Counted from the stretch's first letter, positions 2,196-29,338 are shown. The stretch is DNA of 64,000 nt from an uncultured Pseudomonadales bacterium (GCA_964519335.1 CAZFIA010000005.1:12249-76248); one strand, 5' to 3'. Made by a program: numbers and translations. The notes: generated by a model not told the origin, from the letters alone.

Positions 2196-2266
2196 GGACA
2201 GCCATGCAACAGAGAGCTGGACACCCACGCATCCCCTCAAACGGACGACAAAGAGCTGGACACCCA
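2196..2266. repeat. dispersed GGACA(N)CC repeat cluster (3 copies)
   Basis: GGACAGCCATG at 2196-2206, plus two AGAGCTGGACACCCA direct repeats with cores at 2219-2227 and 2258-2266. The last core abuts the ATG at 2266. Confidence 0.7.
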
Positions 2267-2688
2267 TGAAACACCTCATACTGACAGAACACTTTGCAAG
2301 TAGTGCCGACGAAGTTTGGTCCGTAATCGGCGTGCTTGATCGCGTTGATTGGGTGCCTGGCATAGATACCGCCGAGATGAGAGGCGATGAGCGCCACATG
2401 ACCATGGAGGGCCAATCGTCGCTGGTCGAGAAAATTCACAGACACGACAACGAAACGCGAGAGATCGAGTACGGCGTTGTTCAGTCGGGCGTTGGGATTA
2501 CACATCACCGCGCTCATATCCGGTTGCAAGCCACTGAGACCGGCTGCACGCTACACTGGACTCTCGAAATTGAACCAGATGCCTTCAAAGATGTCGTTGG
2601 AGGCATGATGCAAGCGAGTGCAGACGGCATCCGGCAGGTACTCGGAGAGCCGGCGCCGAAGAACGCAGCCAGTATTGACCATTCATGA
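2266..2688 (+). CDS. SRPBCC (Bet v1/START-like) superfamily protein
   Basis: 140 aa. Size and pattern (ADEVWSVIG...DRVDW.PG....E....) are typical of polyketide cyclase/SRPBCC small ligand-binding proteins. ATGA overlap with the next gene. Confidence 0.65.
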   Translation: MKHLILTEHFASSADEVWSVIGVLDRVDWVPGIDTAEMRGDERHMTMEGQSSLVEKIHRHDNETREIEYGVVQSGVGITHHRAHIRLQATETGCTLHWTLEIEPDAFKDVVGGMMQASADGIRQVLGEPAPKNAASIDHS

Positions 2689-3743
2689 ACTTCGGCAGCG
2701 ACAACGCAACTGGCGCATCAGATTCTGTTCTAGCTGCTATTCAAGAAGCGAATCAAGGCACCACGGCCGGTTACGGCGCGGACCAATGGACCGACCGGGC
2801 GCACAACCGGCTGGAAGAGGTGTTTGAAAGTGAATTGGACGCCTACTTCGTAGCCACGGGAACTGCTGCAAACACTTTGGCACTGGCGAGCATGGTACAA
2901 CCCTGGGAGAGCATTCTATGCCACGCCGAGTCCCATGTTGCTAACGATGAATCAACCGCGCCAGAGTTTATGACCGGCGGGGCTCGACTGGTGCCGCTCT
3001 CGGCAGGCCACGGCAAACTTGAAACCGCGGATTTAGAGCACTATTTCGCAACGGCTGGAACTCTTGTTCCGCACAATTCAAAAGTAGCCGCCTTGTCTCT
3101 GACCCAGAGCAGTGAGTTAGGAATGGTCTACACGCCGGATGAAATTGCCGGACTGACTCAAGTGGCTCAAAATAATGGGGCACGTGTGCACATGGACGGC
3201 GCCCGTTTCGCCAACGCTGTTGCAGCGATCGGTTGCTCACCCGCAGAGCTAAGCTGGCAGGCTGGTGTCGACGTCTTGTGTCTAGGCGCAACCAAGTGCG
3301 GGGCGCTGGCTGCAGAAGCGGTGATCTTCTTTAACAAGAAGCTCGCCGATGGTTTCATACACCGTCGAAAGCGCAGCGGGCACTTACTAAGTAAAGGGCG
3401 GCTCTTCGGTGCCCAGTTTGAAGGCTGGCTAAAAGACAACCATTGGCTAGAACTGGCGAGTCACGCCAACGCGATGGCGGGCACATTGGCCTTTCAACTG
3501 CAACAGATGCAAGGGGTTCGAATGGCATGGCCTGCTCAAGCAAACGAGATATTTGCGATAATCCCCGACGACCTACATAACCGCTTGAGCGCGTCAGGCG
3601 CCGTGTACTACGAATGGCCTGCAACTGCACTGGCCGATCATGATCGACTTGAGCCCGGAGAAGTCTTGATTCGTTTGGTAACCTCTTTTGAAACACACCC
3701 TGAAGAGATTGCGCAATTCGTAGACACTGCAAGCCGCAAGTAA
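2685..3743 (+). CDS. ltaE: low-specificity L-threonine aldolase (beta-eliminating lyase family, PLP)
   Basis: 352 aa. The N-terminus FGSDNATGASDSVLAAI and the overall layout resemble threonine aldolases. Confidence 0.8.
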   Translation: MNFGSDNATGASDSVLAAIQEANQGTTAGYGADQWTDRAHNRLEEVFESELDAYFVATGTAANTLALASMVQPWESILCHAESHVANDESTAPEFMTGGARLVPLSAGHGKLETADLEHYFATAGTLVPHNSKVAALSLTQSSELGMVYTPDEIAGLTQVAQNNGARVHMDGARFANAVAAIGCSPAELSWQAGVDVLCLGATKCGALAAEAVIFFNKKLADGFIHRRKRSGHLLSKGRLFGAQFEGWLKDNHWLELASHANAMAGTLAFQLQQMQGVRMAWPAQANEIFAIIPDDLHNRLSASGAVYYEWPATALADHDRLEPGEVLIRLVTSFETHPEEIAQFVDTASRK

Positions 3744-3753
3744 AGCCTTAGCT

Positions 3754-4701
3754 CTACGTGTAGGTGGCGGCCAAACCGTTAACCGTTGCAAAGAACTCAT
3801 CACGAACTTCTTCGATTACATCTTTTACTGGCCGAACAGAATCGATGCGTCCTGCCACCTGCCCGGTTAACGCGATACTCGAATTCATGTCGCCGCCGAA
3901 ATAGAGGTCCTGGGCATTGCCAAAATCACCCATCACATTTCGCTCGGTTGCTTTTTCGAGCTCTGTAGACTTATCGGTTCGAAGCGCGCGCAACGCGGGA
4001 GAATGAAACCGGTTTAGAAAGACAGTATCGGTTTCTTCTGCATCGACAATGGCATTTTTCCAGTTGTCATGAACCGGAGATTCGGCAGCAGATACCATGC
4101 GCGTGCCCATCTGCACAGCCTCTGCACCCAAAGCAAACGCGGCGGCCATCGACTTACCGTCCACAAATCCACCTGCAGCAATAATGGGTACATCGACCTT
4201 AGAACGAACTAATGGCAAAAGCACCATAGTGCTAACGTCTCTCGGATTCTTAAACCCGCCACCTTCACCGCCCTCAACAACCAATCCATCTACGCCCGCT
4301 TCCACTGCCTTAAGTGCAGCCGCTAAACTTGGCACAACGTGAAAGACGGTGAGACCAGCTTCTTTTAGAGTCCTCGTGTACCGTTCAGGGTTGCCAGCGG
4401 ATGTCGTTACAAAGCGAACACCTTGATCAATGACAAATTCGACAATCGTCGGATCGCGAACAAATGCCTGGGCTATGTTTACACCGAACGGCTTATCGGT
4501 GAGCGTGCGCATTTTCTTGATCTCTTCGCGGATGACGTCCAGTTCACCCGACGAGGTTTCAATGATTCCCAGACCTCCTGCATTGGACACCGCTGATGCG
4601 AGCTGAGAGCGAGCGATCCAGCCCATTGGCGCTTGCACGAGCGGAATGTCTACGCCGAGCAGTTCTGTCAGCCGATTATTGAATTTACCTGAAGAGGTCA
4701 T
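3754..4701 (-). CDS. nitronate monooxygenase / NAD(P)H-dependent flavin oxidoreductase (NMO family)
   Basis: 315 aa. Motifs IPLVQAPMGWIA...SNAGGLGII and GGF.DG are characteristic of the 2-nitropropane dioxygenase/FabK-like TIM barrel. Confidence 0.8.
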   Translation of the reverse strand: MTSSGKFNNRLTELLGVDIPLVQAPMGWIARSQLASAVSNAGGLGIIETSSGELDVIREEIKKMRTLTDKPFGVNIAQAFVRDPTIVEFVIDQGVRFVTTSAGNPERYTRTLKEAGLTVFHVVPSLAAALKAVEAGVDGLVVEGGEGGGFKNPRDVSTMVLLPLVRSKVDVPIIAAGGFVDGKSMAAAFALGAEAVQMGTRMVSAAESPVHDNWKNAIVDAEETDTVFLNRFHSPALRALRTDKSTELEKATERNVMGDFGNAQDLYFGGDMNSSIALTGQVAGRIDSVRPVKDVIEEVRDEFFATVNGLAATYT

Positions 4702-4756
4702 TGGAGATTCCTTGAGTTACTTCTATTTGCTTCGGCAGTCATCGCGTACGGCGGAC

Positions 4757-6418
4757 TTAGCCCGCGGAAGATTGCCGCAGATCAGGTAGCTGATAGCCTT
4801 TTGCGTCGAGATCTGCACGAACAACTTTCTTATCCATCTTGCCCGTAGTGGTAAGTGGAATGGTGTCGATGTAGAGCACTTCGTCGGGCAGCTGCCATTT
4901 AGCGAAGGCGGTGGCGCAATGATCGAGCACTTGTTGTTCGCTCACCTCAGCACCTTCTTCAAGAACAATGAGTGCTACCGGCCGTTCATCCCATTTCGGA
5001 TGCGGCTGCGCGACGACGCATGCCGCGGCGATGCCTTTGATTGCAACAATGTGGTTTTCGAGATCCACTGAAGAGATCCACTCACCGCCGCTTTTAACCA
5101 GGTCTTTGGAGCGATCGCTAATAATGAGGTATTCGTCAGAATCAATCTTTCCGACGTCGCCAGTGATGAGCCAGCCATCGTGAAATTTCTCAGGTTGCGG
5201 ATCGTTGTAGTACTCGCTGCAAATCCACGGACCTCGTATCAATATTTCTCCGACGCTCTCGCCATCATGAGGCACGCGATTGAACTCCTCGTCAAATATG
5301 TCGAGCTCAAGGCCCGGCATGAGTTGACCGGCTTTGGCAACGTTTTCGAATTGATCATCTTCACTAAGCTCAAGATGTTGTCGCGTCATTACGCGGCGTG
5401 AAAGAGTGGCGAGGGGGCTGGTTTCGGTCATGCCCCAACCCTGAATCATCTCTACGCCGAGTGTGTCCCAATACCATCGGATCAGGGAAGGTGGTGGTGA
5501 GGATCCGCCGCAAGTGAGTCGCTGCAGCTTGGACAGATCAAGACTCGACGGATCTGCTTCATAAAGAGATTTCACACCTTGCCAGATGGTGGGGACACCA
5601 GCAGACAGCGTGACGCCTTCATCGGCCATTAAGCGAGCGAGTCGCACTGGATCCATGAAGCGATGGGGTAAAACTTGCTTTGCCCCAAGCATAGTTGCGC
5701 TCCAGGGAATGCCCCAGCCCATGGCATGAAACATAGGCACAATACCGCATATAGAGTCGGCGCCTGAAAGCCCCATCGAATCAGTCATGCACTGCGTCAT
5801 GGTATGTAGGTACTGCGAGCGATGCTCGTACTCAACGCCTTTTGGATTACCCGTAGTTCCACTGGTGTAGCACAAACCCAGTGGCGAATTCTCGTCGATC
5901 TGAGGCCAACCGAAATCAGTCGGCTTGCCGGTAATAAAATCTTCGTAATCTTGAGCACCGGGCAGGTCGCTGGACCAACCCTCGAAGCCCTCTTCAGTCG
6001 CAACGACAACCTTTGCGACACTAGGCATGCGCCCTTTCAATTTCTCGAGCAGAGGCAAGACATCGGCATCAACGATGATCAGCTTGTCTTGCGCATGATC
6101 GATAATGTACTCAAGGTCATTATCGGACAGCCTGACATTCAGCGTGTGCAAGACCGCGCCCATACATGCGATCGCGTGGTAAGCCTCGAGATGCCGAGAG
6201 CCGTTCCACATGAACGTCCCCACACGATCGCCAACTTCTATTCCCGACTCTTTGAGTGCATGAGCCAGCTGATGGGCTCGATTACGGGTCTGTAGATAGG
6301 TTTGGCGTCGAACGCCTTTCTCTGTCGCCGTCACGATCTCTTCGTTCGGCGCAACCTTCGCTCCCCGATCCAGCAAATTCGACATGAGCAGAGGTGTTCG
6401 CTGCATTGCCATAGTCAT
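4757..6418 (-). CDS. AMP-dependent acyl-CoA synthetase (fatty-acid--CoA ligase family)
   Basis: AMP-binding motif YTSGTTGNPKGV, plus GWGMTE and a C-terminal TGKMDKK. I chose the start at ATG 6418, preceded by AAAAGGGGGA (Shine-Dalgarno) on the minus strand. The track ORF begins 10 codons earlier. Confidence 0.85.
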   Translation of the reverse strand: MTMAMQRTPLLMSNLLDRGAKVAPNEEIVTATEKGVRRQTYLQTRNRAHQLAHALKESGIEVGDRVGTFMWNGSRHLEAYHAIACMGAVLHTLNVRLSDNDLEYIIDHAQDKLIIVDADVLPLLEKLKGRMPSVAKVVVATEEGFEGWSSDLPGAQDYEDFITGKPTDFGWPQIDENSPLGLCYTSGTTGNPKGVEYEHRSQYLHTMTQCMTDSMGLSGADSICGIVPMFHAMGWGIPWSATMLGAKQVLPHRFMDPVRLARLMADEGVTLSAGVPTIWQGVKSLYEADPSSLDLSKLQRLTCGGSSPPPSLIRWYWDTLGVEMIQGWGMTETSPLATLSRRVMTRQHLELSEDDQFENVAKAGQLMPGLELDIFDEEFNRVPHDGESVGEILIRGPWICSEYYNDPQPEKFHDGWLITGDVGKIDSDEYLIISDRSKDLVKSGGEWISSVDLENHIVAIKGIAAACVVAQPHPKWDERPVALIVLEEGAEVSEQQVLDHCATAFAKWQLPDEVLYIDTIPLTTTGKMDKKVVRADLDAKGYQLPDLRQSSAG

Positions 6419-6490
6419 TCCCCCTTTTATTCTATAGCCGCCGATCATAGCAAAAGGCGCACAGGCGGGCGGGGGAAATGGCGGGCAGCA

Positions 6491-6620
6491 GAAAATTCAG
6501 GACAGCCAAGCATTTCGACCTGAACGGAATATTCGAGACCGGAAAATCGAGGACAGCCAAATATTGCGCTTCGAAACGGGCGATTCCGCTGGAGCAGAAA
6601 CCTGGATGTCCCAAATTCTC
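6491..6620. repeat. dispersed GGACA(G/T)CC repeat cluster (3 copies, + + -)
   Basis: GAAAATTCAGGACAGCCAAG (6491-6510), GAAAATCGAGGACAGCCAAA (6542-6561), and reverse-strand GAGAATTTGGGACATCCAGG (6601-6620). Confidence 0.85.
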
Positions 6621-6814
6621 TGAAACACTCGCCATTTATTGGAGAGCAGAATCGCAGATAGATCAGATGCTCTCTGCGCCTAAGTTCTGCCAACTCGATG
6701 AGCAATAGGCGCACTAGCCATTGTGTCGCCTACTATCGCGATATCAAAGTCTTTGACTGCAACGCCCCCTTTTAGTGACAGAGCACTCTAAGCGAAGCAA
6801 CTCGAGTCTGTCCT

Positions 6815-7879
6815 TCACAGCTGCCCCACTAGGGACAATTTGAAAATCACGTCTGCAGCTGCCGCACCACTCAGATCTTCAATCAGCGCCAACTCGACCC
6901 TAGCCTTGGGAGTAAGATCCACCTGGAAACCCAGCGTCCCCTGCAAGACCGTCTCCCCCAAGTGCGATAACTCGGCATCGAAAAGGGCACCATGTGCATC
7001 AAGCTGCGCAAGCAGCCCAAGTCGATTCCGCCGCCCCAATCGCTTTCGTAGGCCAAGGTGGCCATAAGGAACTAAAGCCTCGCGCCGGTCACGTAACAGA
7101 TCGCCTTTACCTATGAACGTTACACCAGCACCTAGCGAAAGTTGGACACCCAAGATAGACAGTAACGCTTCGTCTACGTAATCGAACCCCAGAGCAACAT
7201 CAACAGCGCCGGAGCCACTAAGACTGCGCGCCCGGCCCGTCGGTAGCTTGAGATGCAACCGAGAGACCAGCGAACGGTTTGGCGCCTCATAAATTCCATA
7301 CCCGAGCCACCCTCGGACATCACCGAGATTAGACGATTTACCATCCACATCGATTTCAAGAGCTCCATCCGCAAGAACCAAGTAATCGGTTGCTCCTCGT
7401 TCAGTCGAGGGTCGATCGCCGTCAGGCAGGCCGAACAAGTCATGGAACTCATCAATCAAGCCATCAAATCTGCCGCCCGAATGAACCACCCATGGGATTT
7501 CCAGCCCACCTTCCCAGCGATTAAGAAATCCTCGCTTAACAGTGTAGGAAAACGTCGAAGTTTCTCCATCCAGAAATACGAACTCAGAGGCACTAACCCC
7601 CCCCGTAAAGCTATTTGCAGCGTCAACATTGAATCTCAGACGCCAACCTTCAGCCCGCGCACCACGCATCGCTGGTAGACCAAAAATTTGCGCAAGCGGG
7701 GAGGTGTTACGCAATTCAAGAGTTTCTCCCGCAGCCTCCGCCTGAGGGGCAAAAGAAACAAGGATAGAGGCTAAACAGCCGATCGTTAGAACATTCGATC
7801 GCTTGACCCGACGGAGCCTAGTTAGTTCGAATATCGAAAGTTTGGGACAGCCAAACATTGGGAACAATTGCCATTGCAT
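6815..7879 (-). CDS. secreted/outer-membrane hypothetical protein (possibly DUF3187-like)
   Basis: 354 aa ORF. The N-terminus carries RLRRVKR followed by a hydrophobic stretch and AEA (signal peptide). An alternative ATG lies at 7858. Codons 9-13 (FGCPK) are encoded by a copy of the dispersed repeat, so the true start is uncertain. Confidence 0.55.
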   Translation of the reverse strand: MQWQLFPMFGCPKLSIFELTRLRRVKRSNVLTIGCLASILVSFAPQAEAAGETLELRNTSPLAQIFGLPAMRGARAEGWRLRFNVDAANSFTGGVSASEFVFLDGETSTFSYTVKRGFLNRWEGGLEIPWVVHSGGRFDGLIDEFHDLFGLPDGDRPSTERGATDYLVLADGALEIDVDGKSSNLGDVRGWLGYGIYEAPNRSLVSRLHLKLPTGRARSLSGSGAVDVALGFDYVDEALLSILGVQLSLGAGVTFIGKGDLLRDRREALVPYGHLGLRKRLGRRNRLGLLAQLDAHGALFDAELSHLGETVLQGTLGFQVDLTPKARVELALIEDLSGAAAADVIFKLSLVGQL

Positions 7880-7921
7880 AGTCCCAGCACTCCTAGCGTA
7901 AAAATAAACAGGACAGCCAAC
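7836..7921. repeat. dispersed GGACA(G/T)CC repeat cluster (2 copies, + +)
   Basis: GAAAGTTTGGGACAGCCAAA (core 7845-7855) and AAATAAACAGGACAGCCAAC (core 7911-7921). Confidence 0.8.
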
Positions 7922-8026
7922 TAAAAGCGGCCACGTGTGAGTCTACTACTGGAAGAGTACTCGGGACTAACCCGTGGACGCGTTAACCGAAACAGATCCC
8001 TAGCTCACGCGCCCCACATAGGCCTG

Positions 8027-9310
8027 CTAGTCGCCGAAGCAGCGTCTGATGTCAGCGCCGAGAGCAGAGAGCCTCTCCTCCAAACGCTCATAGCCCCGGT
8101 CTATCTGCACCACGTTGTGAATGGTGGTTTCTCCTTTTGCAGCCAAAGCTGCAATAACCATCGCCATACCAGCACGTATATCAGGAGAATTCAGCGAAAT
8201 TCCGTGCAGCTGCCGAGGTCCAGCAACAACTACGCGATGAGGATCGCACTGCACTATTCCTGCACCCATTGCGATGAGCCGATCTACAAACACCAACCGC
8301 CGGTCAAAAAGGCGTTGGCTGATCAAAACCGATCCTTGGCATTGCGTGGCCAGAACGATGGCAATACTTATGAGATCTGGGGGAAAGCCTGGCCAAGGTA
8401 AATCAGCAATTTTAGGCGTCGCACCATCAAATTCTGAATCTATTCTCAATTCCTGGCTGTCCGCTATTACTATGTCATCTCCATCGACATCCCAGGTAAC
8501 CCCGAGTCGCCCAAAAGCTGCCTGAGTGATCCTCTGATTTTCCGGTTGTGCCCCAACTATACGTAAAGAGGATCGCGTGGCCGCCGCAAGAGCGATGAAC
8601 GAACCAACTTCCATATAATCAGGCGCTACTGTGAATTCCGCACGGGAGAGAGCCGAGACACCAACTATCGACAACGTGTGAGTTCCAACCCCAGTTATGC
8701 GTGCGCCCATGGCTATAAGGCAGCGACACAAATCCTGAACATGCGGCTCAGTGGCAGCTTGAGATATTCGCGTTGTGCCAGTAGCCAATACGGCGCATAG
8801 AACAGCTTGTTCGGTGCCCGTAACGCTCATCTCATCCAGGAACAGATCCGTCGCCCGAAAGCCCTGGCTGGAAAGAACGTGGGTACCGCCCTCAACATCG
8901 ATTACTGCTCCAAAGGCTTTAAGCGCTAGAAGGTGGGTGTCCAAATTTCGGCGGCCAATTCGATCGCCGCCAGGTTGAGTAAGGCGTGTTCGGCCAAAGC
9001 GCGCGAGCATCGGAGCCGCCAGAAGAACTGAAGTTCTGATCTGCGCACTGAGTTCAGGGTCAGGGATTTGGTTCTTTAGACCGGAGGCATCAATCACGCA
9101 CCTGTGATCTGCAAAATGTACCTCGGCACCAAGACCTCGAATCAGTCGAAGCTTGGTGCGAACATCGCCAATATCTGGAACGTTGTGCAACACAAGGGGC
9201 TCATCAGACAGCAGGGCCGCAGCAATGAGCGGCAGCGCCGCATTCTTGTTGCCCCGGGGGGTAATCTTACCGCTAAGCGGCTTTCCGCCGCGAATCTTGA
9301 AGTAACTCAT
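8027..9310 (-). CDS. murA: UDP-N-acetylglucosamine 1-carboxyvinyltransferase homologue (EPSP-synthase fold), Asp-type active site
   Basis: 427 aa. It aligns by eye with E. coli MurA along its length (GNKNAALP, PGFPPD, DIRAG..., IDRGYERLEERL.ALGA). The active-site loop reads PGGDRIGRR where E. coli has PGGCTIGAR. Confidence 0.85.
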   Translation of the reverse strand: MSYFKIRGGKPLSGKITPRGNKNAALPLIAAALLSDEPLVLHNVPDIGDVRTKLRLIRGLGAEVHFADHRCVIDASGLKNQIPDPELSAQIRTSVLLAAPMLARFGRTRLTQPGGDRIGRRNLDTHLLALKAFGAVIDVEGGTHVLSSQGFRATDLFLDEMSVTGTEQAVLCAVLATGTTRISQAATEPHVQDLCRCLIAMGARITGVGTHTLSIVGVSALSRAEFTVAPDYMEVGSFIALAAATRSSLRIVGAQPENQRITQAAFGRLGVTWDVDGDDIVIADSQELRIDSEFDGATPKIADLPWPGFPPDLISIAIVLATQCQGSVLISQRLFDRRLVFVDRLIAMGAGIVQCDPHRVVVAGPRQLHGISLNSPDIRAGMAMVIAALAAKGETTIHNVVQIDRGYERLEERLSALGADIRRCFGD

Positions 9311-10331: not shown

Positions 10332-11056
10332 TGTGAGCTACTAGTCTGAGCCTTACTTTGGCCGGCGAAAAAATTCACCAACCAATGCCCCATAACAGAC
10401 TGGTCAATAGAATGAGAGAGCGAATCTAACCCCGATTCAAAAACCTCTTCACCCAGAAGGTCCTTTCGGAAAGTCATGAGTGATCGCGCGTATTCCCTTC
10501 GAAACTCTGGATGTCCTTGAATCGTCAAAGTGTGATTACCTACCGTAAAGCCTGCGTTTGGGCAAAAAGTGTTGGTAGCGTACAAGGTGGCGTCGGGAGG
10601 CAGCTCGAGCACCTGATCCTTGTGACTTGATAGCAGACTCAATCGCTCCGTGGGAGGCGTCATCCAATAGTCATCTTCAATAATGTCACAACTGTGTACA
10701 CCTACAGCCCAACCTTCTTCCGCAGCGCCCACCCTACCTCCAAAAAAGTGGGCAACAAGTTGATGACCAAAACAAATTGCGGCCAATTTTATCTCTTGTT
10801 CTCTTAGTTGGCCGACAAAGTCCACCAGAGGGGGAATCCATGGAAGGTCATCGTAAACACTGTCTCTCGAGCCAGTGATTAAGTAGCCGTCGCACTGCGC
10901 CGGGTCAGGAACGTTGCCGCTTTGAACATCGTAGACACTGATTTGTAAAGAAGGATCAGCGCTGAGCAGTAGATGCTCAAACATATCGGGATAGTCTCCA
11001 TGTTCCGCGATGAACTCATCTCGTACTGAGTCGACTTTTAGTATTCCTAAATGCAT
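10328..11056 (-). CDS. class I glutamine amidotransferase-like protein (GMP synthase-type GATase domain)
   Basis: 242 aa with the catalytic triad context LAAICFGHQL (Cys) and GHPEF (His). Confidence 0.8.
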   Translation of the reverse strand: MHLGILKVDSVRDEFIAEHGDYPDMFEHLLLSADPSLQISVYDVQSGNVPDPAQCDGYLITGSRDSVYDDLPWIPPLVDFVGQLREQEIKLAAICFGHQLVAHFFGGRVGAAEEGWAVGVHSCDIIEDDYWMTPPTERLSLLSSHKDQVLELPPDATLYATNTFCPNAGFTVGNHTLTIQGHPEFRREYARSLMTFRKDLLGEEVFESGLDSLSHSIDQSVMGHWLVNFFAGQSKAQTSSSH

Positions 11057-11200: not shown

Positions 11201-11257
11201 TCGATTTCTGGACAGCCAGGTTTTGCACGATCTCGCTAGAAATATTGGACAGCCGAC
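11201..11257. repeat. dispersed GGACA(G/T)CC repeat cluster (2 copies, + +)
   Basis: GATTTCTGGACAGCCAGG (core 11210-11220) and GAAATATTGGACAGCCGAC (core 11247-11257). Confidence 0.8.
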
Positions 11258-11580
11258 GAATCCCGGGCCCAGCGGGCCAAAAACCACTCCACGAACCGCA
11301 ATCTGTGGATAACTCTGAGGATAAGCACAGCCCTTCCGGCAATAGCACTGGAAACACAAAACCGATGCAGGTACCACAATTAGTTCAAAGATTAGATTAT
11401 TTTGTTTTTTATCAGCTAGTTAGCGGAATTCTAACATACGTTTACTCACCTCCAAACAGCCCTCTAACAGGTCTGTGAGCCTTCTCGTACGCTTGTGCAT
11501 AACGCATTTAGAACGCACCTCACCCCCCAAAATTGGCGTCAAAACTGTTCGAGCTTCTGGAGCTCCCGTAGTTTAGGCGG

Positions 11581-11934
11581 CTAGAGCCCAATAGCGTTGA
11601 TTGACTGTCCAGCAACCAAAATCGCCAAAGCCAAGGAAACGCCAAGCAAGGTACGCCAGAGCGCGACCGAAATCCGAGGCGATGGCGGGCTGTCCGAAGA
11701 TTCTAAGTCGACATTCGTTTCTTCCGACTGGTTCATAGCGGTCTCTTCAACCATCGGAAGTAAGTCCCCAGCCGACCGGGCTTTCACTTGTGGTTCGGCA
11801 AAGGTGATGTGCAGTTCTTCGATTATTTCACGTCGCGCACGACGGTATTCTTGTCGCGAGATTCCCCCGGCTCCATGCGTCCTCGCAAGCTCACGCAGAT
11901 GGCGAGCCGCGGGTTCCAGTTCTAAAAAGCTCAC
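11581..11934 (-). CDS. hypothetical protein with a C-terminal transmembrane anchor
   Basis: 117 aa ORF. It has an arginine-rich helical N-terminus, an acidic linker and the hydrophobic tail WRTLLGVSLALAILVAG. It is co-directional with the PP2C gene. Confidence 0.45.
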   Translation of the reverse strand: MSFLELEPAARHLRELARTHGAGGISRQEYRRARREIIEELHITFAEPQVKARSAGDLLPMVEETAMNQSEETNVDLESSDSPPSPRISVALWRTLLGVSLALAILVAGQSINAIGL

Positions 11935-12025
11935 AAGCCTGACACCTCAACAACGGACTGGCGTGTGTGCCGGACCTCATCGGCAACACCACCATCGAAT
12001 TCAGTTTCTGATAGTCGAACAAAAA

Positions 12026-12346
12026 TCAACCTGACCGGACCTTTTGAAGAATCAATACTAACGGATCCAGCCCTGGTGCCAGTAGTCGCATTAGCCAGGG
12101 AGATTCTTCCAACAGCTCAGCCTGTAAATTAGCGATACTTGATAACCTGTGCTCTTGCTCAAAAACCATCGCCTGCGACGAGAAAGGCCAAGCCGCGTTC
12201 TTTGTAAGCCCTTTAAGGTGCTCCCAGAATAATTCCAGAAATACCCGGAGGTGGCTCAATTCTATGGCGATGATTGGGACATCTCCTTCCTGATCGAAAT
12301 CGACTATTTTCAGAATTTCGTTGTGCGATAGAGGCTGGCTGTCCAA
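12026..12346 (-). CDS. hypothetical acidic protein
   Basis: 106 aa ORF with no recognisable motif. Its TTG start lies inside a copy of the dispersed repeat, so the start and possibly the gene itself are doubtful. Confidence 0.3.
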   Translation of the reverse strand: MDSQPLSHNEILKIVDFDQEGDVPIIAIELSHLRVFLELFWEHLKGLTKNAAWPFSSQAMVFEQEHRLSSIANLQAELLEESPWLMRLLAPGLDPLVLILQKVRSG

Positions 12347-12544
12347 TTCTTCTACCCCACGCAGCTCATTGGCGTAGCAACCGCCCCAATACCACCACTA
12401 CCAAGCTCTTCTCGCTTCACCAGCCAGGATTCAGGTATCACAGGAGAAAGAGCGGCAACCCGCGAGCGCAATTGGGCGGCAGAGAGGATCCGCAGTTGCG
12501 ATCGGTCATTAGCCTCGGCCGCGGCCCAGTCTATTCCCGCACGA

Positions 12545-13291
12545 TCAATGGAAAACATGTTCAAAACCACGCAGCGCCAGAAAGGAAATGTTGTCTCGAG
12601 CGGGCCGAGAAAGTGCAAGCTCAATAAGCTCGGACGCGGCAACCTCAAGGTCAGGTTGAGTGAGTATTTTACCTATTTCGCAATCAGCCACTTCACGATA
12701 CAAGCCATCTGTGCAAAGAAGTAAAGTGTCTGTCGACTCCAGGTCAAACACCGCAATGTCCAGTTCAAGGGGGCGCCGTCCGCCAACAGACCGAGTTATG
12801 ATGTTTGTATTAGCAGCAAGAGCTTCATCCTCAGTTATCGCCCCAGAATCGAGTAGATCAGCTATCGGGTTATGGTCGCGGGTGACCACCTTCAGGCAAC
12901 CACGACGCAATCGATACAAACGACTATCACCGGCCCAGAGGACCACACCTGTCGTACCTTCGATAGTTAGGCTCACCACCGTAGACCCAATAACGGCGGA
13001 AGGCCCTATCTCCTTTGCCTGTTTACGCAGCGATTGATGCGTGATTACCAACCGATCTTCAATCCAGTCCACTCGATCAGCGAGCGTATGACCCGTCTTT
13101 AGATCCGAAGGTTCGGGTACCAAGGCTTCGGCGACCGAACGACTGGCTACCTCACCCGCCGAATGGCCACCCATCCCATCTGCGACCACCCAAATAGATT
13201 CTCTGGTGCAGGCCATCACAGCGTCCTCATTGACCCGCCGACGGTTTCCCGGATGGGTCCGACTCGCTGAAAGCCAGGGCCGCTCATGCAT
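12545..13291 (-). CDS. PP2C-family Ser/Thr protein phosphatase (Stp1/PrpC-like)
   Basis: Motifs RRVNEDA, VADGMGGHSAGEVAS and LLLCTDGL. I chose the start at ATG 13291 (MHERPWLSAS...). The track ORF extends 41 codons further upstream. Confidence 0.85.
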   Translation of the reverse strand: MHERPWLSASRTHPGNRRRVNEDAVMACTRESIWVVADGMGGHSAGEVASRSVAEALVPEPSDLKTGHTLADRVDWIEDRLVITHQSLRKQAKEIGPSAVIGSTVVSLTIEGTTGVVLWAGDSRLYRLRRGCLKVVTRDHNPIADLLDSGAITEDEALAANTNIITRSVGGRRPLELDIAVFDLESTDTLLLCTDGLYREVADCEIGKILTQPDLEVAASELIELALSRPARDNISFLALRGFEHVFH

Positions 13292-13434
13292 GACTAAACC
13301 TGAGCGTGTTTTCGGAGGAAGCATGTAGGCCAGGCAGGACCAGATCAGGGCAGATAGGTAAACCTCTGCAGAAACTCGCATTAGGCTGGCCCGCACATCG
13401 AAACATGCGACCACACCAATACAAAGCTAGTTCA

Positions 13435-13703
13435 GGACATCCAAGATATGGCTTCTTAGTGAAGTGTTCAGATGTTAGGGAGTCCATCAGCACTCCTTGT
13501 CCAATAGAAGTTTTTAGAGCAAATCGAACGCACCGCGCAATCCCGTGGCGCATGAGTATCTACTGAGAGCATAGGTGAGCGTCGCCGCGAGAAATGCGAC
13601 CCCGTTCACAGTGGCTACCAGATAAGGACATCCATCGAACGCTGACTGCAAATTCCATCGAGTTGATTAACGTTTATGGGCGAACCAAAGCTGGACATCC
13701 AGA
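13435..13703. repeat. dispersed GGACA(G/T)CC repeat cluster (3 copies, all +) upstream of the RayT-like gene
   Basis: GGACATCCAAG 13435-13445, GGACATCCATC 13625-13635 and GGACATCCAGA 13693-13703. A possible degenerate GGACAATC copy lies at 13746-13753. Confidence 0.8.
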
Positions 13704-13780: not shown

Positions 13781-14764
13781 ATGAAAAGCGAAATCTCACT
13801 GACGCATTATTCGTCCATGACTTACCCTCGAGCCCACCTCGTAGATCAAAAAAATGGCGGTTACTACCACTGCATTTCTCGTTGTGTTCGTCAATCCTGG
13901 CTTTGCGGGACCGATCATCAGAACGGGAAATCTTACGAGCACCGACGCGGCTGGATCGCCAGTCGAATTCAGCTTCTAACCAACCTATTCGCCGTCGACG
14001 TGTACGCCTACGCGATAATGAGCAACCACTACCACATAGTGGTTAGGCTTGACCCAAAAAGAACTAATAAATGGACAGACAAAGACATTGTTGATCGTTG
14101 GTTAGCAAGATCGGGTACAAAGAAATCAAAGAGATATCTCCGCGAACAAAGTAAACGTCTTCTCGAACAGCCCAATAAAATCAATCAAATCAGAAGTCGA
14201 CTAGGCAGTCTCTCCTGGTTCATGCGCTTCATCAATGAACCCATCGCTCGCAGTGCTAACGCCGAGGATGAATGCGCTGGACGGTTTTGGGAAGGCCGTT
14301 TCAAATCTGTAGCGCTGCTCGACCGGACGGCTTTGTTGGCTTGCATGGTTTACGTGGACCTAAACCCTGCAAGAACTAGTTCCAGAGCCAAGATTCCCTC
14401 CCTCCACACCAGTGCGCATCAGCGTGCTCGAAATAGTAAGAAGAAGCTGGCCAATTTTGAAGATATAGACACAACTCTTAGGGAGTACGTCGATTTACTT
14501 CGTTGGACTCGAATACAAAACCAGAAAGCGGAAGATCAAACAGCGACGAGTAAACCAAACCTACTAGATAGCATCAACCAAGATTCACAAAATTGGTTGC
14601 AATGGGTTAGCTCTTTTTCCTATTGGTATCGGGCGTACGGTTTGAGAAGAGCTCTCGATAACTACACTCTAAAACTCGGACAGTGTTGGCTACAAACACC
14701 CGAGTTGAGGAAAATGGATTTGGGTAACAGGCCTGGGTTTGGTCGCGCGACCGCTAGTGCATAA
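13781..14764 (+). CDS. REP-associated tyrosine transposase (RayT/TnpA_REP)-like HUH Y1 protein, long form
   Basis: 327 aa. It carries GGYYHCISRCV, the HUH motif in MSNHYHIVV and a YVDLNPAR segment, typical of IS200/IS605-type Y1 transposase domains of the RayT group. An alternative start lies at ATG 13817 (MTYPRAHLVD). The gene looks visibly more A/T-rich than its neighbours. Confidence 0.8.
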   Translation: MKSEISLTHYSSMTYPRAHLVDQKNGGYYHCISRCVRQSWLCGTDHQNGKSYEHRRGWIASRIQLLTNLFAVDVYAYAIMSNHYHIVVRLDPKRTNKWTDKDIVDRWLARSGTKKSKRYLREQSKRLLEQPNKINQIRSRLGSLSWFMRFINEPIARSANAEDECAGRFWEGRFKSVALLDRTALLACMVYVDLNPARTSSRAKIPSLHTSAHQRARNSKKKLANFEDIDTTLREYVDLLRWTRIQNQKAEDQTATSKPNLLDSINQDSQNWLQWVSSFSYWYRAYGLRRALDNYTLKLGQCWLQTPELRKMDLGNRPGFGRATASA

Positions 14765-15608: not shown

Positions 15609-15667
15609 TGGATGCTCAATGCCGGGTGTAAACGCCTACTCTAGCAAAAAGGGGGTGCAGAAAGAGT

Positions 15668-15705
15668 AAAGCCAGACGCAGGCTTTTACACCCACGTCTG
15701 GCTTT
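15668..15705. other. perfect 11 bp inverted repeat (hairpin) in the cnoX-MBL spacer
   Basis: AAAGCCAGACG (15668-15678) and CGTCTGGCTTT (15695-15705) are separated by a 16 nt loop. AGTTTTT follows on the + strand. Confidence 0.5.
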
Positions 15706-15902
15706 AGTTTTTGGCCCCTTCCCTGCGGCTCGAGAAGAACAATAGTCGGTTCAACGCGATCCCACATACCCCATCTGGTGTATATCTCTCGAATGAGTGA
15801 ACAATTCGTACGGTGATAAGGTCTTCCAGGAGACAAAACGGCGGGGATAAGTGGCGGTTTGAGAACAACCAGGCAAGGCCCCTAACGATCGTTCTGAAAA
15901 TC

Positions 15903-16055
15903 TGGACATCCAACATCTAACTTGGAATTGCCTGGATGTCCAATATTCCACCTCTTGGGAATTCCTTGGGGCCAGTATTTGCTCTTTGCTTAGCTGTCCC
16001 GAATTGCCCTCTTTGCTTGGCTGTCCCGAATTGCCTGGCTGTCCCGAATTGAACC
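15903..16055. repeat. dispersed GGACA(G/T)CC repeat cluster (5 copies: an inverted doublet plus a 26-27 bp tandem array)
   Basis: TGGACATCCA 15903-15912 and its exact complement TGGATGTCCA 15933-15942. Tandem units CTTTGCTTAGCTGTCCCGAATTGCCCT (15984-16010), CTTTGCTTGGCTGTCCCGAATTGCCT (16011-16036) and the partial unit GGCTGTCCCGAATTGAACC (16037-16055). Confidence 0.88.
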
Positions 16056-23295: not shown

Positions 23296-24144
23296 TTGCT
23301 CTCAAACGGTGTATCGCCGCACAACGACAATCATGCTCGGATTATTGAATCACTGACGCAAGATGGCTGGGAGGTCTGCGTATTTGGGCACAACGAATTA
23401 TGCATGCTCGAATCTGGCGTGTGTGCGGGCGCAACACCGCTCGAGACGTTTGATCTGGTTTGGATGCTAGGGCTGGGCGAGCAACAAAATTTCTTCGATC
23501 GCTGTCAGATTTTGAACAATCTCCCCGCTCAAAAACTCGTGAATAGCCCTGTAGGTATGCTGTTTCTACACGCAAAACTTGCATTGCTGCCGCATGCTCC
23601 CATCACATTCAGCGGCAACCAGCCCAATGAGTTGCTCGCAGCAACCCAGAGGAATCCGGAAATAGAGCGATGGGTAGTAAAACCCACCGCAGGGAGCTAC
23701 GGGCGCGGAGTCACACTCGCCAACAATCAAGACGCCCTTACGGAAGCACTCCAAGCGGCAACTAACGCCGGTCGCTACTGCGTGGTTCAGGCGTATGTAG
23801 ATGAAATAACGGCAGGAGAAACTCGATGTCTGCTGGTTAACGGGCAAATCATCGGCAGCTATCTACGGATACCAAACAAGGACTTCCTGGCAAATTTGAG
23901 CCAGGGCGGCCGAGCTCAGCGAACAGAGTTGGACAGCCAGCAAAAACGCCAAATTTGTGAAATAGGCAATATTCTTTCTTTAAGCGGCGTGAGATTTGCA
24001 GCAATCGATATGGCTTTTCCCTGGCTCATAGAGGTCAATATCGCAAATCCAGGCGGTCTAGCAACGTTGGCGGCCCTTGAAGCCGTTGACGACCCCAGGG
24101 TTGGCGAGAAAATGGCTCAGGCTCTACGTACTATGTTGGATTAA
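23296..24144 (+). CDS. ATP-grasp ligase, glutathione synthetase (GshB)-like
   Basis: 282 aa. The C-terminal half aligns by eye with the GshB ATP-grasp region (VVKP..GSYGRGV, E.R.LLVNG, ANLSQGGRA, ..EVNI.NPGG). It has a TTG start. The frame stays open upstream to 23176 without a canonical start codon. Confidence 0.7.
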   Translation: MLSNGVSPHNDNHARIIESLTQDGWEVCVFGHNELCMLESGVCAGATPLETFDLVWMLGLGEQQNFFDRCQILNNLPAQKLVNSPVGMLFLHAKLALLPHAPITFSGNQPNELLAATQRNPEIERWVVKPTAGSYGRGVTLANNQDALTEALQAATNAGRYCVVQAYVDEITAGETRCLLVNGQIIGSYLRIPNKDFLANLSQGGRAQRTELDSQQKRQICEIGNILSLSGVRFAAIDMAFPWLIEVNIANPGGLATLAALEAVDDPRVGEKMAQALRTMLD

Positions 24145-24146
24145 GG

Positions 24147-24365
24147 CTATTTACTCTGCGCAGCCGACGCTCGCAGCTTGTCTAGAGCATCCTGCCGTTC
24201 ATCGATACGCGAAACATGATCGAAAATCATTGCGCGCCGCCGCGGATGGCTACCCGCCTTAATCACCTCAAGTTGTCCTTTCAGGCGCACGATTTCCTGC
24301 TCGCAGAGCGCGACAGCAGAATCCAGACCTGACGCAGGGATTCGATCGTCTGAGTTAGTAGCCAT
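24147..24365 (-). CDS. small coiled-coil hypothetical protein
   Basis: 72 aa ORF with heptad-like helices. It converges on the ATP-grasp gene with a 2-nt gap. No family recognised. Confidence 0.4.
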   Translation of the reverse strand: MATNSDDRIPASGLDSAVALCEQEIVRLKGQLEVIKAGSHPRRRAMIFDHVSRIDERQDALDKLRASAAQSK

Positions 24366-24379
24366 GTATTGAGTTTACC

Positions 24380-24564
24380 GGACATCCAACAACTGTGAGA
24401 ATTCGGGACAGTCAGGATTTACCCACCATCAGAAAATTCAAGTTGAAGTGCCCGGGAATCCCCAAAACAGCCGCTCGTTCCTAAATCTTGGATGTCCTGA
24501 TCTCCTCTAAATCTTGGATGTCCTGATCTTCGCTGGATGTCCCGATCTGCGTCCCGATCTCTGC
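24380..24564. repeat. dispersed GGACA(G/T)CC repeat cluster (5 copies, including a 26 bp tandem array)
   Basis: GGACATCCAAC 24380-24390 and GGACAGTCAGG 24406-24416 on the + strand. Tandem units CTAAATCTTGGATGTCCTGATCTCCT (24481-24506) and CTAAATCTTGGATGTCCTGATCTTCG (24507-24532) are followed by decaying partial units up to 24564. Confidence 0.88.
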
Positions 24565-24735
24565 TATCCCCGCTAAGAGTTTTCCAACAGCCCTCTGCTA
24601 ACATGCCACGCCGAACACAAAGGCGAATTGCTCACAGAAAATGTCTCCTTTGGCGGCTCGCTAACGTCCCAGGAGAGGTCCAGTATCGATGTTGATCAAC
24701 GAGTACAAACGAAGACCAAAAGCGCTGGGTAAGTC

Positions 24736-25950: not shown

Positions 25951-25994
25951 ATCGTATACCCGCTGATGCAGACACCGGATTGGTTTTCGGGCCG

Positions 25995-26699: not shown

Positions 26700-26708
26700 A
26701 ACAAGTAC

Positions 26709-27254
26709 TCATAAGTCTTTGCAGTGTTTGTTATAACTCTTTTGCTGCGACTTAACTCGCGTGGAGACTTCATTGTCCGATAAGTAGCGGCGCTCACCGT
26801 CAGGGGTTTTTTCATAAAAAACTCCACCGGACGAGAGTTCCTCAATCTCTGCAGCTACAACTTTGCACCTCTCTCGCTGCTTTAACGATAGTTCAGGTGC
26901 TCTAGCCTTAGCCATCGCCTCCAAACGACGAGTCTCTTCAAATCGCCGCAAAATCGCTTCTGTAGCCGCATGCTGACGTTGTGCCGCTCCGACATCAGGC
27001 GCCTGCGGATTACTATTACGCCATCGCCGTCTATTCTCACTTTCTAACTCTTCAAAGCGCGAACGCGTTTCTGGATCAAGCGTTTCAAGCAGTGCTTCCG
27101 AGAACATGGGCTCGTATGACTCTGCATTCAAGTTGTTTGCGCAAAGTAATAAGAACATCGCAACACTCAGGCGAGCCATATGCGCAAGCATTGATTGACC
27201 TACGCGTCGACGCGCTAAAACAGAAGACCGCGTTGGTTGACTAGCCTGCATCAC
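26709..27254 (-). CDS. secreted hypothetical protein
   Basis: 181 aa. Signal peptide MARLSVAMFLLLCANNLNA (internal ATGs at 27191 and 27179 are likelier starts), charged helical repeats, and a C-terminal GGVFYEKTPDGERRYLSD motif. Confidence 0.5.
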   Translation of the reverse strand: MMQASQPTRSSVLARRRVGQSMLAHMARLSVAMFLLLCANNLNAESYEPMFSEALLETLDPETRSRFEELESENRRRWRNSNPQAPDVGAAQRQHAATEAILRRFEETRRLEAMAKARAPELSLKQRERCKVVAAEIEELSSGGVFYEKTPDGERRYLSDNEVSTRVKSQQKSYNKHCKDL

Positions 27255-27368
27255 TCAATCCGATAGTTCCCTGCCGATATATTAATGACTGAGAATCAGG
27301 AAAACGTGACCCAACTCCCCTTGCTCAACAATCCCAAATAGTTTGCGCGAAACCAGCAACCTAACTAA

Positions 27369-28250
27369 CTAGTAATCCAGTCGAAAACTAGCGCCATCGC
27401 GAACCAACCGACCCGCTGTAGGTGTCGCAAAGTGCGTACCTAAAACCAGAACCGGTTTGTCAGCGTAGCGCTTCATAAAATCGTTGCGGGTCCGAGCAGA
27501 GAGCTCTGGGTCAACATCCGCAGTGCTCGACCAGTCTGCATGTGCTATTTGGCAGGGGTGATGAATCATGTCGCCAGTTATTATCGCCTCTTCCCCGCGA
27601 GAGCGAATATGGATACTTACGTGGCCGGGCGTGTGTCCGGGTGTGCTCTCAAGCTGCACCTCGGGACACACCTGATGATCTGAGTCGACAAAATCTGCGA
27701 GACCCGCGTCAATAACAGGTTGCACAGAGTCTTCGATTACGGGCCCATATTCTTGAGGCTCGACGCACCAATGCGACCACTCTGTTGAGCTGTAAAGGTA
27801 GCGTGCTGATGTGAACGTCGGAACAAAATTCCCATTTACCAATCGCGTATTCCAACCCACATGATCGACGTGCATATGTGTGCACAATACCGTGTCGAAG
27901 CACTCTGGAGGAAAACCATCAGCAATCAGCCGCTCCAAAAAATCGGACTGCATGTGATTCCATTTAGGATAGCTACGCACCTTGTCGTTACCGATACACG
28001 TATCGACAAGCAAAGTTCGGTCAGGTGTCTCGACGACAAAGCTGTGCATGCTCAGCACTAGCCGCTTACGCTCATCCAAAAAGGGGTCGAGCCAATCATG
28101 AGCCGAGAGAGCTTCCGGGGTCGCCTGTGGCAGCAGGTGTGGTCCCAGTGAGGCAGTGGTTAGTTCGACATAGCGTCGTATTCGTACATCACCAATCTGC
28201 CACGAGAGTACATCTAGATCAGGCATTGCGAATGGTAAGACCGCCGTCAA
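27369..28250 (-). CDS. MBL-fold metallo-hydrolase (lactonase-like)
   Basis: 293 aa with HMHVDHVGW (HxHxDH) and a later TPGHTPGH. An alternative start at ATG 28226 reduces the overlap with the upstream SDR gene to 8 nt. Confidence 0.8.
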   Translation of the reverse strand: MTAVLPFAMPDLDVLSWQIGDVRIRRYVELTTASLGPHLLPQATPEALSAHDWLDPFLDERKRLVLSMHSFVVETPDRTLLVDTCIGNDKVRSYPKWNHMQSDFLERLIADGFPPECFDTVLCTHMHVDHVGWNTRLVNGNFVPTFTSARYLYSSTEWSHWCVEPQEYGPVIEDSVQPVIDAGLADFVDSDHQVCPEVQLESTPGHTPGHVSIHIRSRGEEAIITGDMIHHPCQIAHADWSSTADVDPELSARTRNDFMKRYADKPVLVLGTHFATPTAGRLVRDGASFRLDY

Positions 28251-28995
28251 CCGGCAAGGCTACTCCAGTGATGAACGATGATGCCGGCAACACCAACGAG
28301 AGAGTGCCGTGCGCAACTTCTTCTGGATCTGCGTAACGTCGCAGCGCCACTCGCCGCTTCGCAAATATGGTTTTGTGATCGTCTCTTATTTCCGCCGTCA
28401 TTCCCGTGTTAATCGGGCCGGGACAAATGCAGTTAACGGTAATGTTATCTCGCCCGAGTTCCACAGCGAGTGACCGGGTTAGGCCAATGACACCAGTTTT
28501 TGCCGCGGTGTAAGGGCTACCGCCAGCGGTAGCGCCCAGGCCTTCGGTGGACGCGATGTTAACAATGCGCGGGTGACTGGCTTTCCGAAGATGCGGCAAG
28601 GCAGCGCGAATGGTCCGCGTGTGAGCGGTAAGTAGCACACTGAGGGATAACGCCCACCGGTCTTCAAAATCATCAGAATCTATAGGCGCAGGAAGCGATA
28701 TGCCGGCGTTGTTTACCAGAATATCAATCCCGCCAAAATCAGCCGCGATCTGGGCGATCGTGCTCTGGATCGCAGCGCCATCAGCAAGATCAAGCGGGTA
28801 GGCTCGGGCATCGGTCCCAGCAGCGGCGATGAGTGCTTGCTCCTCAGCCAGCGGCTGTTCATTAATATCAATAAGAGCAACCCGAGCACCTGCGTCTGCA
28901 AACACTCGAGCAGTGGCCTGACCCATGCCACTTGCAGCTCCGGTAATGATGGCAACCTTGCCCTCAATCGATCGACTGAATTTCGATAGCGCCAT
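28219..28995 (-). CDS. SDR-family oxidoreductase (FabG-like)
   Basis: GKVAIITGAASGMGQA (TGxxxGxG), NNAG and YTAAK (YxxxK). I chose the start at ATG 28995. Confidence 0.9.
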   Translation of the reverse strand: MALSKFSRSIEGKVAIITGAASGMGQATARVFADAGARVALIDINEQPLAEEQALIAAAGTDARAYPLDLADGAAIQSTIAQIAADFGGIDILVNNAGISLPAPIDSDDFEDRWALSLSVLLTAHTRTIRAALPHLRKASHPRIVNIASTEGLGATAGGSPYTAAKTGVIGLTRSLAVELGRDNITVNCICPGPINTGMTAEIRDDHKTIFAKRRVALRRYADPEEVAHGTLSLVLPASSFITGVALPVDGGLTIRNA

Positions 28996-29076
28996 ATGTC
29001 TCTCCCCTATTTGTAGACCACGGACGAACCGCAAAAGGTACCCGTCTAGAGCGCTCGAGACAAAGGGAGAAAGAGA

Positions 29077-29152
29077 TGGTGGGACGTCTGGGGTTCGAAC
29101 CCAGGACCAACGGGTTAAAAGCCCGGTGCTCTACCAACTGAGCTAACGTCCC
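29077..29152 (-). tRNA. tRNA-Lys (anticodon UUU)
   Basis: The reverse complement GGGACGTTAGCTCAGTTGGTAGAGCACCGGGCTTTTAACCCGTTGGTCCTGGGTTCGAACCCCAGACGTCCCACCA folds as a cloverleaf. The anticodon loop is CTTTTAA, the T-loop is GGTTCGAA, and CCA is encoded. It is very similar to E. coli tRNA-Lys. Confidence 0.95.
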
Positions 29153-29302
29153 TATGCAACTGCGGGTTATCTGCCGAATGGCCCCGCGCAGCGAGCGGCA
29201 CAGTTTAGCGGCGGGAAAGCTAAACGCAACCGCAAAAGCGGGTATCTGAACACTGTTAAATCTGACCCAAGTCAGCCTTTACAACGATGCATGACTGCCC
29301 GG

Positions 29303-29338
29303 AAATCATGGCTGTCCAATAAATCATGGCTGTCCAAG
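29303..29338. repeat. dispersed GGACA(G/T)CC repeat, 2 x 18 bp tandem
   Basis: AAATCATGGCTGTCCAAT (29303-29320) and AAATCATGGCTGTCCAAG (29321-29338), located between the queC stop and tRNA-Lys. Confidence 0.85.

Follow-up and report, generated by a model that had tools for sequence, protein, structure and literature searches.

The closest described counterparts of the element considered here are the TIRtrons, or TIRYTs, in which a RAYT-like Y1 gene is flanked by non-GTAG inverted repeats (TIRs) that may form moderately abundant families, dimers or clusters (Di Nocera, De Gregorio & Rocco 2013, PMC3733652). A comparable arrangement is found in a 64,000-nucleotide stretch of DNA from an uncultured Pseudomonadales bacterium (GCA_964519335.1, CAZFIA010000005.1:12249-76248; the whole stretch is hereafter called the window). 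Here, a dispersed repeat with the core GGACA(G/T)CCA, whose copies are likewise single, paired or clustered, brackets one gene for an HUH/Y1 tyrosine-transposase homologue of TnpA_Y1 subclass 2.3 ('RayT', positions 13781-14764, + strand). Judged from sequence comparison, this resident single-copy gene very probably has the GGACA(G/T)CCA units as its cognate end repeats, in a role that would parallel that of REPs for RAYTs and of TIRs for TIRYTs. The earlier note on this DNA, generated by a model from the sequence, had presented the repeat as an element that it did not recognize, and had overlooked the open reading frame (ORF) 13781-14764. As this RAYT-type ORF sits in the middle of the repeat-rich part of the window, bracketed by the repeat, the element belongs in the REPtron/TIRtron world.

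Compared to TIRtrons, the present locus has at each end an array of one to seven short units with a 9-nt core rather than one long TIR, its protein belongs to subclass 2.3 rather than 2.1, and its copies are regional, reaching 12.1 kb to the left and 15.0 kb to the right. Against the TIRtron TIR motif GGGGWSAS, the GGACAG of the core fits positions 3-8; conservation is lacking at positions 1-2, and the last S does not agree with the T and C variants of the core. Subclass 2.3 has its root within subclass 2.1, to which most TIRYTs belong (PMC6006769).

The locus also resembles the REPtrons (TnpA_REP, 4ER8; Nunvar 2010; Bertels & Rainey 2011, PMC3116915), with which it shares a Y1 HUH gene that is single-copy, passed on vertically and bracketed by an extragenic repeat family of its own, the long persistence of copies at orthologous sites, and a fold that is closest to TnpA_REP. 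However, REPs are imperfect palindromes of 20-40 nt, headed 5′ by GT[AG]G, that occur by the hundreds genome-wide, whereas the units here are non-palindromic, have no GTAG, lie mostly in direct arrays and are regional in the sequence seen. The IS200/IS605 insertion sequences (IS608, ISDra2) share the catalytic fold, the HUH and Y motifs and, presumably, action on single-stranded fork DNA. They are multi-copy, have a Y---Q motif, carry subterminal hairpins on a single strand and often include tnpB. The present gene, by contrast, occurs once in ~75 kb, is syntenic down to 51% identity and has Y---NP; its arrays are inverted, and there is no tnpB. Because the gene is single-copy and syntenic, it is not an insertion sequence.

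HUH Rep proteins of geminiviruses, circoviruses and rolling-circle plasmids have a conserved substrate of ~9 nt, together with short direct-repeat arrays plus an inverted copy beside the gene. The likeness to such iterons and nonanucleotides thus lies in an HUH enzyme with a (here putative) ~9-nt substrate and arrays beside its gene. The Rep systems differ in serving small-replicon origins and in belonging to another HUH clade, and no stem-loop bearing the core was evident in the window, unlike in Rep origins.

The RayT-like protein

The gene encodes a protein of 327 aa, with a conserved N-terminus that starts from M13 (13817). No Pfam family is matched at gathering level. The Pfam model Y1_Tnp (PF01797) gives E=0.017 (15.7 bits vs a cut-off of 23) and the NCBIfam model REP_Tyr_transpos (NF047646) E=1.5e-6 (28.1 bits vs a cut-off of 80; 3.5e-8 to 2e-7 for the orthologues), both models deriving from shorter subclasses. 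A sequence-level search of the PDB yielded no match. Homologues of ~305 aa number in the thousands, some of them named 'REP element-mobilizing transposase RayT' by JGI, and 46 of 47 match Y1_Tnp.

Alignment of the 47 homologues showed that H83 and H85 (NHYH, within SNHYHIVV at 81-88) are invariant, and that W170-E171 (GRFWEGRF), Y191, N195 and P196 (VYVDLNP, the Y---NP signature of class 2) and T210-S211 are conserved; NHYH is present in every full-length homologue. The HuH-Y distance, from H85 to Y191, is 106 aa, compared to 98-113 aa in the homologues. The gene was assigned to subclass 2.3 because its motifs, length and HuH-Y distance match those given for this subclass, namely NHYH, WE, YVDLNP, a TS tail, a median length of ~325 aa and a HuH-Y distance of ~110 aa (Quentin et al. 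2018, PMC6006769 Table 1).

Foldseek search with an AF2 model of the protein (pLDDT 84, pTM 0.85) placed E. coli TnpA_REP first (4ER8_A; prob 1.00, TM-target 0.57), followed by ISDra2, IS608 and Sulfolobus TnpA. The C-terminal domain modelled alone (pLDDT 66) had no Foldseek match, and Pfam found no helix-turn-helix. The gene is present in one copy in the window with no adjoining tnpB, and is syntenic between an FHA-PP2C operon and a Trx-TPR gene down to 51% protein identity; the 51%-identical relative carries mostly the GGACACCCA dialect of the core.

Association of the gene with the repeat

In the window, the upstream array of the RayT-like gene consists of three + copies (GGACATCCA) at 13435, 13626 and 13693 (13435-13701), which are located at -346, -155 and -88 from the start codon. 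The downstream array lies past the convergent Trx-TPR gene (15904-16044) and has one + copy at 15904 and four - copies at 15933, 15991 (variant GGACAGCTA), 16018 and 16036. It holds 27-nt and 18-nt tandem units, and orthologous arrays are found in the related loci L124, L126, L496 and L502.

Searches with the RayT-like protein (tblastn and hmmsearch) covered 504 loci, including 240 chosen by DNA pattern alone and 248 viral controls. Full subclass-2.3 homologues (38-58% identical; NHYH, GRFWE and YVDLNP in all) adjoin arrays in 13 of the 240 DNA-pattern loci, and none was found in the 248 viral control loci. The repeats run sense 5′ of the gene and antisense 3′ of it, an arrangement recorded over 20 loci: the nearest upstream copy is sense ('>') in 16 of 19 loci, and the nearest downstream copy is antisense ('<') in all six non-syntenic loci that contain downstream sequence. 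Moreover, in eight lineages the innermost upstream copy is placed ~73-90 nt ahead of the start codon.

Homologues in unrelated genomes are bracketed likewise. On a 5.7-Mb contig (L504), a non-syntenic homologue with 46% identity is preceded by a single sense copy, at -85, and followed by six antisense copies between +170 and +445; the repeat flanks there (AGATCAGGACATCCAA) match the 24.4-kb cluster of the window. In complete replicons of cultured Pseudoalteromonas, GACACCCA is found at -143/-77 and +193 in one case (L505) and at -117/-76 and +236/+281 in the other (L507), bracketing a gene annotated merely as 'transposase'.

Arrays of the repeat taken alone carry much less information. Public scans, which used a two-copy pattern for genome contigs and a three-copy pattern for metagenomes, listed mostly unrelated tandem or coding repeats. 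Among the matches listed were, in many phyla, non-coding arrays that share the core, yet with shuffled cores the scans listed 95 and at least 120 arrays, compared to 33 with the real core. The idea of a universal motif across phyla was dropped on these grounds. As the shuffled-core controls gave as many arrays or more, arrays alone are background, and it is the co-occurrence with the gene that rescues part of the claim.

Dispersed non-coding families with the same core were also seen in a Thermodesulfobacteriota metagenome-assembled genome (MAG; L014) and in gammaproteobacterial MAGs (L024/L110 and L023/L061), for example as 14 GGGGACAGCCAC in 8 kb in inverted pairs, with no subclass-2.3 gene within the 8-kb locus. 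A TIRYT/2.1-type gene may lie outside the fetched stretch in these cases, or the resemblance may be coincidental.

The repeat unit and its distribution

The dispersed family reported in the earlier note, mostly intergenic, grouped and on both strands, is real. A composition-matched check found 30 GGACAKCC matches on both strands of the window, compared to 4.07 expected from dinucleotide shuffles (sd 1.96; maximum of 9 in 100), and GGACAKCC words top the ranking of over-represented 8-mers. The 9-mer GGACAKCCA has 24 matches vs ~1 expected. All 24 lie within 2196-29335, that is, from 12.1 kb to the left to 15.0 kb to the right of the RayT gene centre, and none is found at 30-73 kb, which comprises the right part of the window and ~10 kb more of the same strain (contig L501). 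The absence of exact copies from the spacers between 30 and 64 kb, which had been noticed before, is thus upheld and extends to ~73 kb. Over the ~75 kb of the source strain's sequence that was covered, there are 24 copies in 27 kb and none in the next 44 kb. The earlier note held that restriction to this single 30-kb stretch would speak against the repeat. Such a restriction is nearly seen within the ~75 kb; it is explained by the position of the RayT gene and does not refute the repeat.

This distribution also bears on the possibility of a DNA uptake sequence in a competent lineage. A 9-nt core with A/T-rich flanks, present at ~1 copy per kb on the left with no strand bias and conserved in the clade, would suit such a role. 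Nevertheless, the copies are tandemly arrayed, strongly intergenic and not evenly spread, and they are absent from 44 kb of adjacent core genome including its spacers, which together make an uptake sequence exceedingly improbable.

The consensus with flanks, from a logo of the 30 window copies and 46 copies from relatives, is aAATTyN-GGACAKCCA-RnnATT. This corrects the consensus first proposed for the flanks. Repeat finders defined a unit of 18-27 nt (GAAAATTCAGGACAGCCAAGCATTTCG), and the tandem arrays have periods of 18, 26-27 and 39 nt, of which 18 nt is the shortest. The positions first assigned to the copies were essentially right, except that those on the minus strand were starts of 11-mers and that 13625 should be 13626.

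Within ~14 kb of the RayT gene, copies occupy almost every long spacer (> ~300 nt), plus a few genes. The gene bamC (17176), formerly taken as the sole gene with a core, is one of several, the others being those for an acyl-CoA ligase (6125), murA (8455), an amidotransferase (10509) and a RimK-like protein (23931). Two further coding 8-mer matches, at 30574 and 39327, are without the final A of the 9-mer. Full 9-mers with typical flanks are found in murA (8454-8462, -) and the amidotransferase gene (10508-10516, -), both kept in L124 and L126 and absent in L127, and in the RimK-like gene (23931-23939, +), where the copy is kept in L496 and L497.

Single units show no excess of hairpins, with a mean DNA minimum free energy of -2.31 for 94 units vs -2.28 +/- 0.11 for flank-swapped controls, and no GT[AG]G head appears in logos of 30, 46 and 79 copies. 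Owing to the lack of both hairpin and GTAG, the repeat is not a classical REP, as the earlier note had rightly said of REP/BIME elements. Adjacent copies within 300 nt are direct in 92 of 116 pairs, and opposite-strand neighbours in this clade are always convergent (13 '><' vs 0 '<>'). RNA folding of five spacers gave results no better than shuffles in four, and only 6485-6625 forms a significant long hairpin (z=-4.1).

These data allow the repeat to be weighed as a classical REP/BIME or a REPIN, that is, as palindromic hairpins which lend transcripts stability or end them and which move as inverted doublets. Such elements would be extragenic, clustered and next to a RAYT homologue, as the copies here are, and the exclusively convergent opposite-strand pairs and the one spacer hairpin are in keeping with them. 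A REPIN, however, has two inverted REPs in a hairpin as its unit, whereas here convergent pairs exist among mostly direct neighbours and a single spacer folds. As the units are also not palindromic, carry no GT[AG]G head and are of mixed orientation relative to transcription, this identity is very unlikely.

A motif acting at the RNA level, such as a GGA protein-binding site or a Shine-Dalgarno mimic in leaders or sponge RNAs, was considered as well. Copies that abut start codons as GGACAKCC-ATG (the variant at 2258 in the window; 6969 and 9670 in L127; 933 and 4248 in L502) would agree with it. However, both orientations occur within single co-directional spacers, an Rfam search at gathering level and at E<=5 matched only tRNA-Lys and nothing on the repeats, and the conserved core is far longer than GGA. 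We regard an RNA motif as highly improbable.

The abutting copies in L127 and L502 precede the annotated starts of a pspC-like gene and a small gene, which suggests that start-codon-abutting copies now supply the ribosome-binding region in some cases. In addition, tandem duplications at 2196-2285 of the window and at 18551-18640 of L124 copy the repeat plus the first codons of a cyclase (Polyketide_cyc2) gene. The duplication in the window has produced an upstream ORF of 21 codons, the stop codon of which overlaps the true ATG.

Conservation of copies in relatives

The best named relatives of the window proteins (63-69% identical) are mostly from Gammaproteobacteria or Pseudomonadales MAGs. 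Syntenic relatives were found via MurA and CoA-transferase, with identities of 91% (L124, for MurA), 85% (L126), 84% (L497), 85% (L496), 77% (L127) and 74% (L498). The first five carry 11-16 copies per ~20 kb, mostly in the same spacers as the window, and L498 has no copy in 12.4 kb of the syntenic stretch from the CoA-transferase gene to tolB. At orthologous copies, core and flank identities are 0.96 vs 0.47 in the murA/DUF3187 spacer and 0.79 vs 0.55 in another, whereas other arrays vary in copy number between relatives, with tandem duplication altering the number. In this clade, the repeat forms a local, long-lived family around the gene.

The locus L125 (JGI 3300000972 BBAY73_10000026) was excluded, since its many 50-124-nt deletions vs L124 were taken as assembly errors. 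It is 99.9-100% identical to L124 in aligned blocks and is without eleven segments of 50-124 nt, several of them genic; the deletions are probably an assembly artefact of an older data set.

The better-kept cores raise the question of whether an unrelated host DNA-binding protein, such as a local regulator, a nucleoid-associated protein or the binder of a centromere-like landmark, uses these sites, the RayT gene being a bystander. An asymmetric 9-nt core with a G/T-degenerate position, on both strands and at variable spacing, would fit such a protein, as would orthologous cores that are kept while their flanks drift, and ~24 sites in 27 kb are comparable in scale to parS clusters. Yet subclass-2.3 homologues are bracketed by this core in unrelated genomes and contexts as well, for which a host-specific regulator would not account, no partition or regulator gene lies in the domain, and the GC skew indicates neither an origin nor a terminus in the window, the DnaA-box region described below included. 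We therefore hold a host protein with a bystander gene to be unlikely, and a centromere-like or parS-like domain was rejected in view of the identical bracket in unrelated genomes.

Arrangement of copies in the window

The leftmost copies (2196-2266, +) comprise GGACAGCCA at 2196 and, where 39 nt of the cyclase gene start are duplicated in tandem, two GGACACCCA variants at 2219 and 2258. Three copies follow at 6500 (+), 6551 (+) and 6603 (-) (6500-6611), the outer two of which are ~24-nt inverted units with the potential to form a long hairpin. The murA/DUF3187 spacer has two + copies at 7845 and 7911 (7845-7919), whose position is kept in four lineages. Convergent copies in a decayed kinase/POTRA region (11210-12344) are located at 11210 (+), 11247 (+; GGACAGCCG), 11687 (-; GGACAGCCC) and 12336 (-).

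To the right of the RayT gene, a convergent cluster occupies a divergent promoter region (24380-24542), with + copies at 24380 and 24406 (variant GGACAGTCA) and - copies at 24489, 24515 and 24534; this arrangement is repeated in L496, L497 and L502. The rightmost copies form an 18-nt tandem pair (29309-29335, -) just 3′ of queC and 5′ of tRNA-Lys, and L496 and L497 have orthologous ones. The right half of the window is a que-tol-pal-ruv-aspS block with tight spacers, and its few real spacers are without copies.

Some of the long left-side spacers result from gene decay. A glpD-like (DAO) gene of the relatives is deleted at 6411-6814, with a repeat-bearing spacer in its place. At 11584-12558, a Ser/Thr kinase is cut to three fragments and what is left of a POTRA/ShlB protein is an ORF of 117 aa. 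Truncation also affects an FHA protein, the decayed stretches being 6411-6814, 11584-12558 and 13317-13487. In addition, a 2-nt indel at 11803 was seen vs a near-identical (99.9%) ENA contig. On the left flank, an HDOD protein shows SNPs in a longer contig.

Other features of the window

In the decayed kinase/POTRA region, 11296-11440 contains a perfect DnaA box (TGTGGATAA), followed 3 nt on by a one-mismatch box (TGAGGATAA) and then by an A/T-rich stretch at ~11370-11440. About 200 nt 5′ of the Trx-TPR gene (15609-15810, -) are far better conserved in relatives than the remaining spacer. Within them, a 17-bp stem-loop (15667-15706) precedes a T-rich tail, and a weak, sub-threshold Rfam match (BASRCI27) coincides with this site; the conserved stretch could be a terminator or a leader RNA.

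An inverted repeat, TGGATGTC-N8-GACATCCA, at 53964-53987 lies exactly between the divergent overlapping starts of an ABC transporter gene and a hydrolase gene. It has GACATCCA in common with the repeat core, but its orientation is divergent and the site is isolated; it could be an operator. Tandem repeats in right-half spacers (32637-32662 and 40964-40996) consist of two AATTGTCCCAAGG, whose reverse complement is CCTTGGGACAATT, a GGGACA word, and of three TCTGCGCTATA, respectively. A long stretch at 40.9-42.6 kb holds small ORFs only. Sigma-54 and sigma-70 promoter elements, DnaA boxes, and IHF, CsrA and m6A sites were also weighed as identities of the repeat and were rejected on spacing or sequence.

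Proposed function

We propose direct recognition of the core by the RayT-like enzyme, which would probably also nick the core and rejoin it. Its likeliest substrate would be DNA exposed as single strands at the replication fork, the kind on which IS608 TnpA and E. coli TnpA_REP act. Nicking and rejoining is suggested by analogy with IS608, ISDra2 and TnpA_REP, whose mechanism on single-stranded fork DNA is established (PMC6006769). Short-range re-insertion, together with slippage between neighbouring copies, may have built the local 'repeat neighbourhood'. Moreover, the near-invariance of the 8-9-nt core across ~40%-identical proteins suggests that it is contacted by the conserved catalytic core and not by a fast-evolving accessory domain.

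Several points weigh against the assignment of the units to the RayT-like enzyme. Binding and cutting of the core by this protein are inferred from sequence, and its Pfam and NCBIfam scores lie under the curated cut-offs. The core-specific conservation at orthologous sites looks more like that of selected protein-binding sites than of decaying transposon relics. The units form no hairpin, unlike every solved Y1 transposase substrate, and the dominance of direct arrays is explained by no known Y1 mechanism. Plasmid-borne homologues in a Shewanella plasmid (L506) and in Catenovulum (L508) show a single copy or none that is clear. Arbitrary 9-mers commonly form three-copy arrays, and array matches prove nothing by themselves; only co-occurrence with the gene does. 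Further repeat clusters elsewhere in the source genome are possible.

A bolder extension appears rather doubtful, although it merits mention. Subclass-2.3 Y1 proteins might be domesticated, locus-fixed HUH proteins with an 8-9-nt core, GACANCCA, as their universal substrate, kept across orders in the way that the nonanucleotide is for Rep proteins. The ~27-kb neighbourhood of this clade might have been seeded and maintained by the enzyme and selected since before genus-level splits, which would imply a local host function and not selfish spread. Candidate functions of this kind would be the processing of single-stranded DNA at forks, the control of neighbouring promoters and local recombination.

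A published survey of the superfamily, whose set has 224 genes of subclass 2.3, found no REP-like sequence for subclasses 2.1 and 2.3 (PMC6006769). In addition, our literature search retrieved no account of the GGACA(G/T)CCA core or of any subclass-2.3 repeat, and matches to the sequence strings were primers only. RAYT-related Y1 HUH enzymes are present in about one quarter of bacterial species, and subclass 2.3 now gains a concrete candidate DNA substrate, namely a short core that is not palindromic and lies in inverted arrays, their distance from the gene being fixed. This is a testable target, for which cultured hosts exist in Pseudoalteromonas and Salinisphaera sp. G21_0. If the assignment is true, a Y1 enzyme would be able to work without a hairpin, and its repeats could remain near the gene and be kept at orthologous positions. 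This would bear on the debated question of whether RAYT-type systems are selfish or domesticated.

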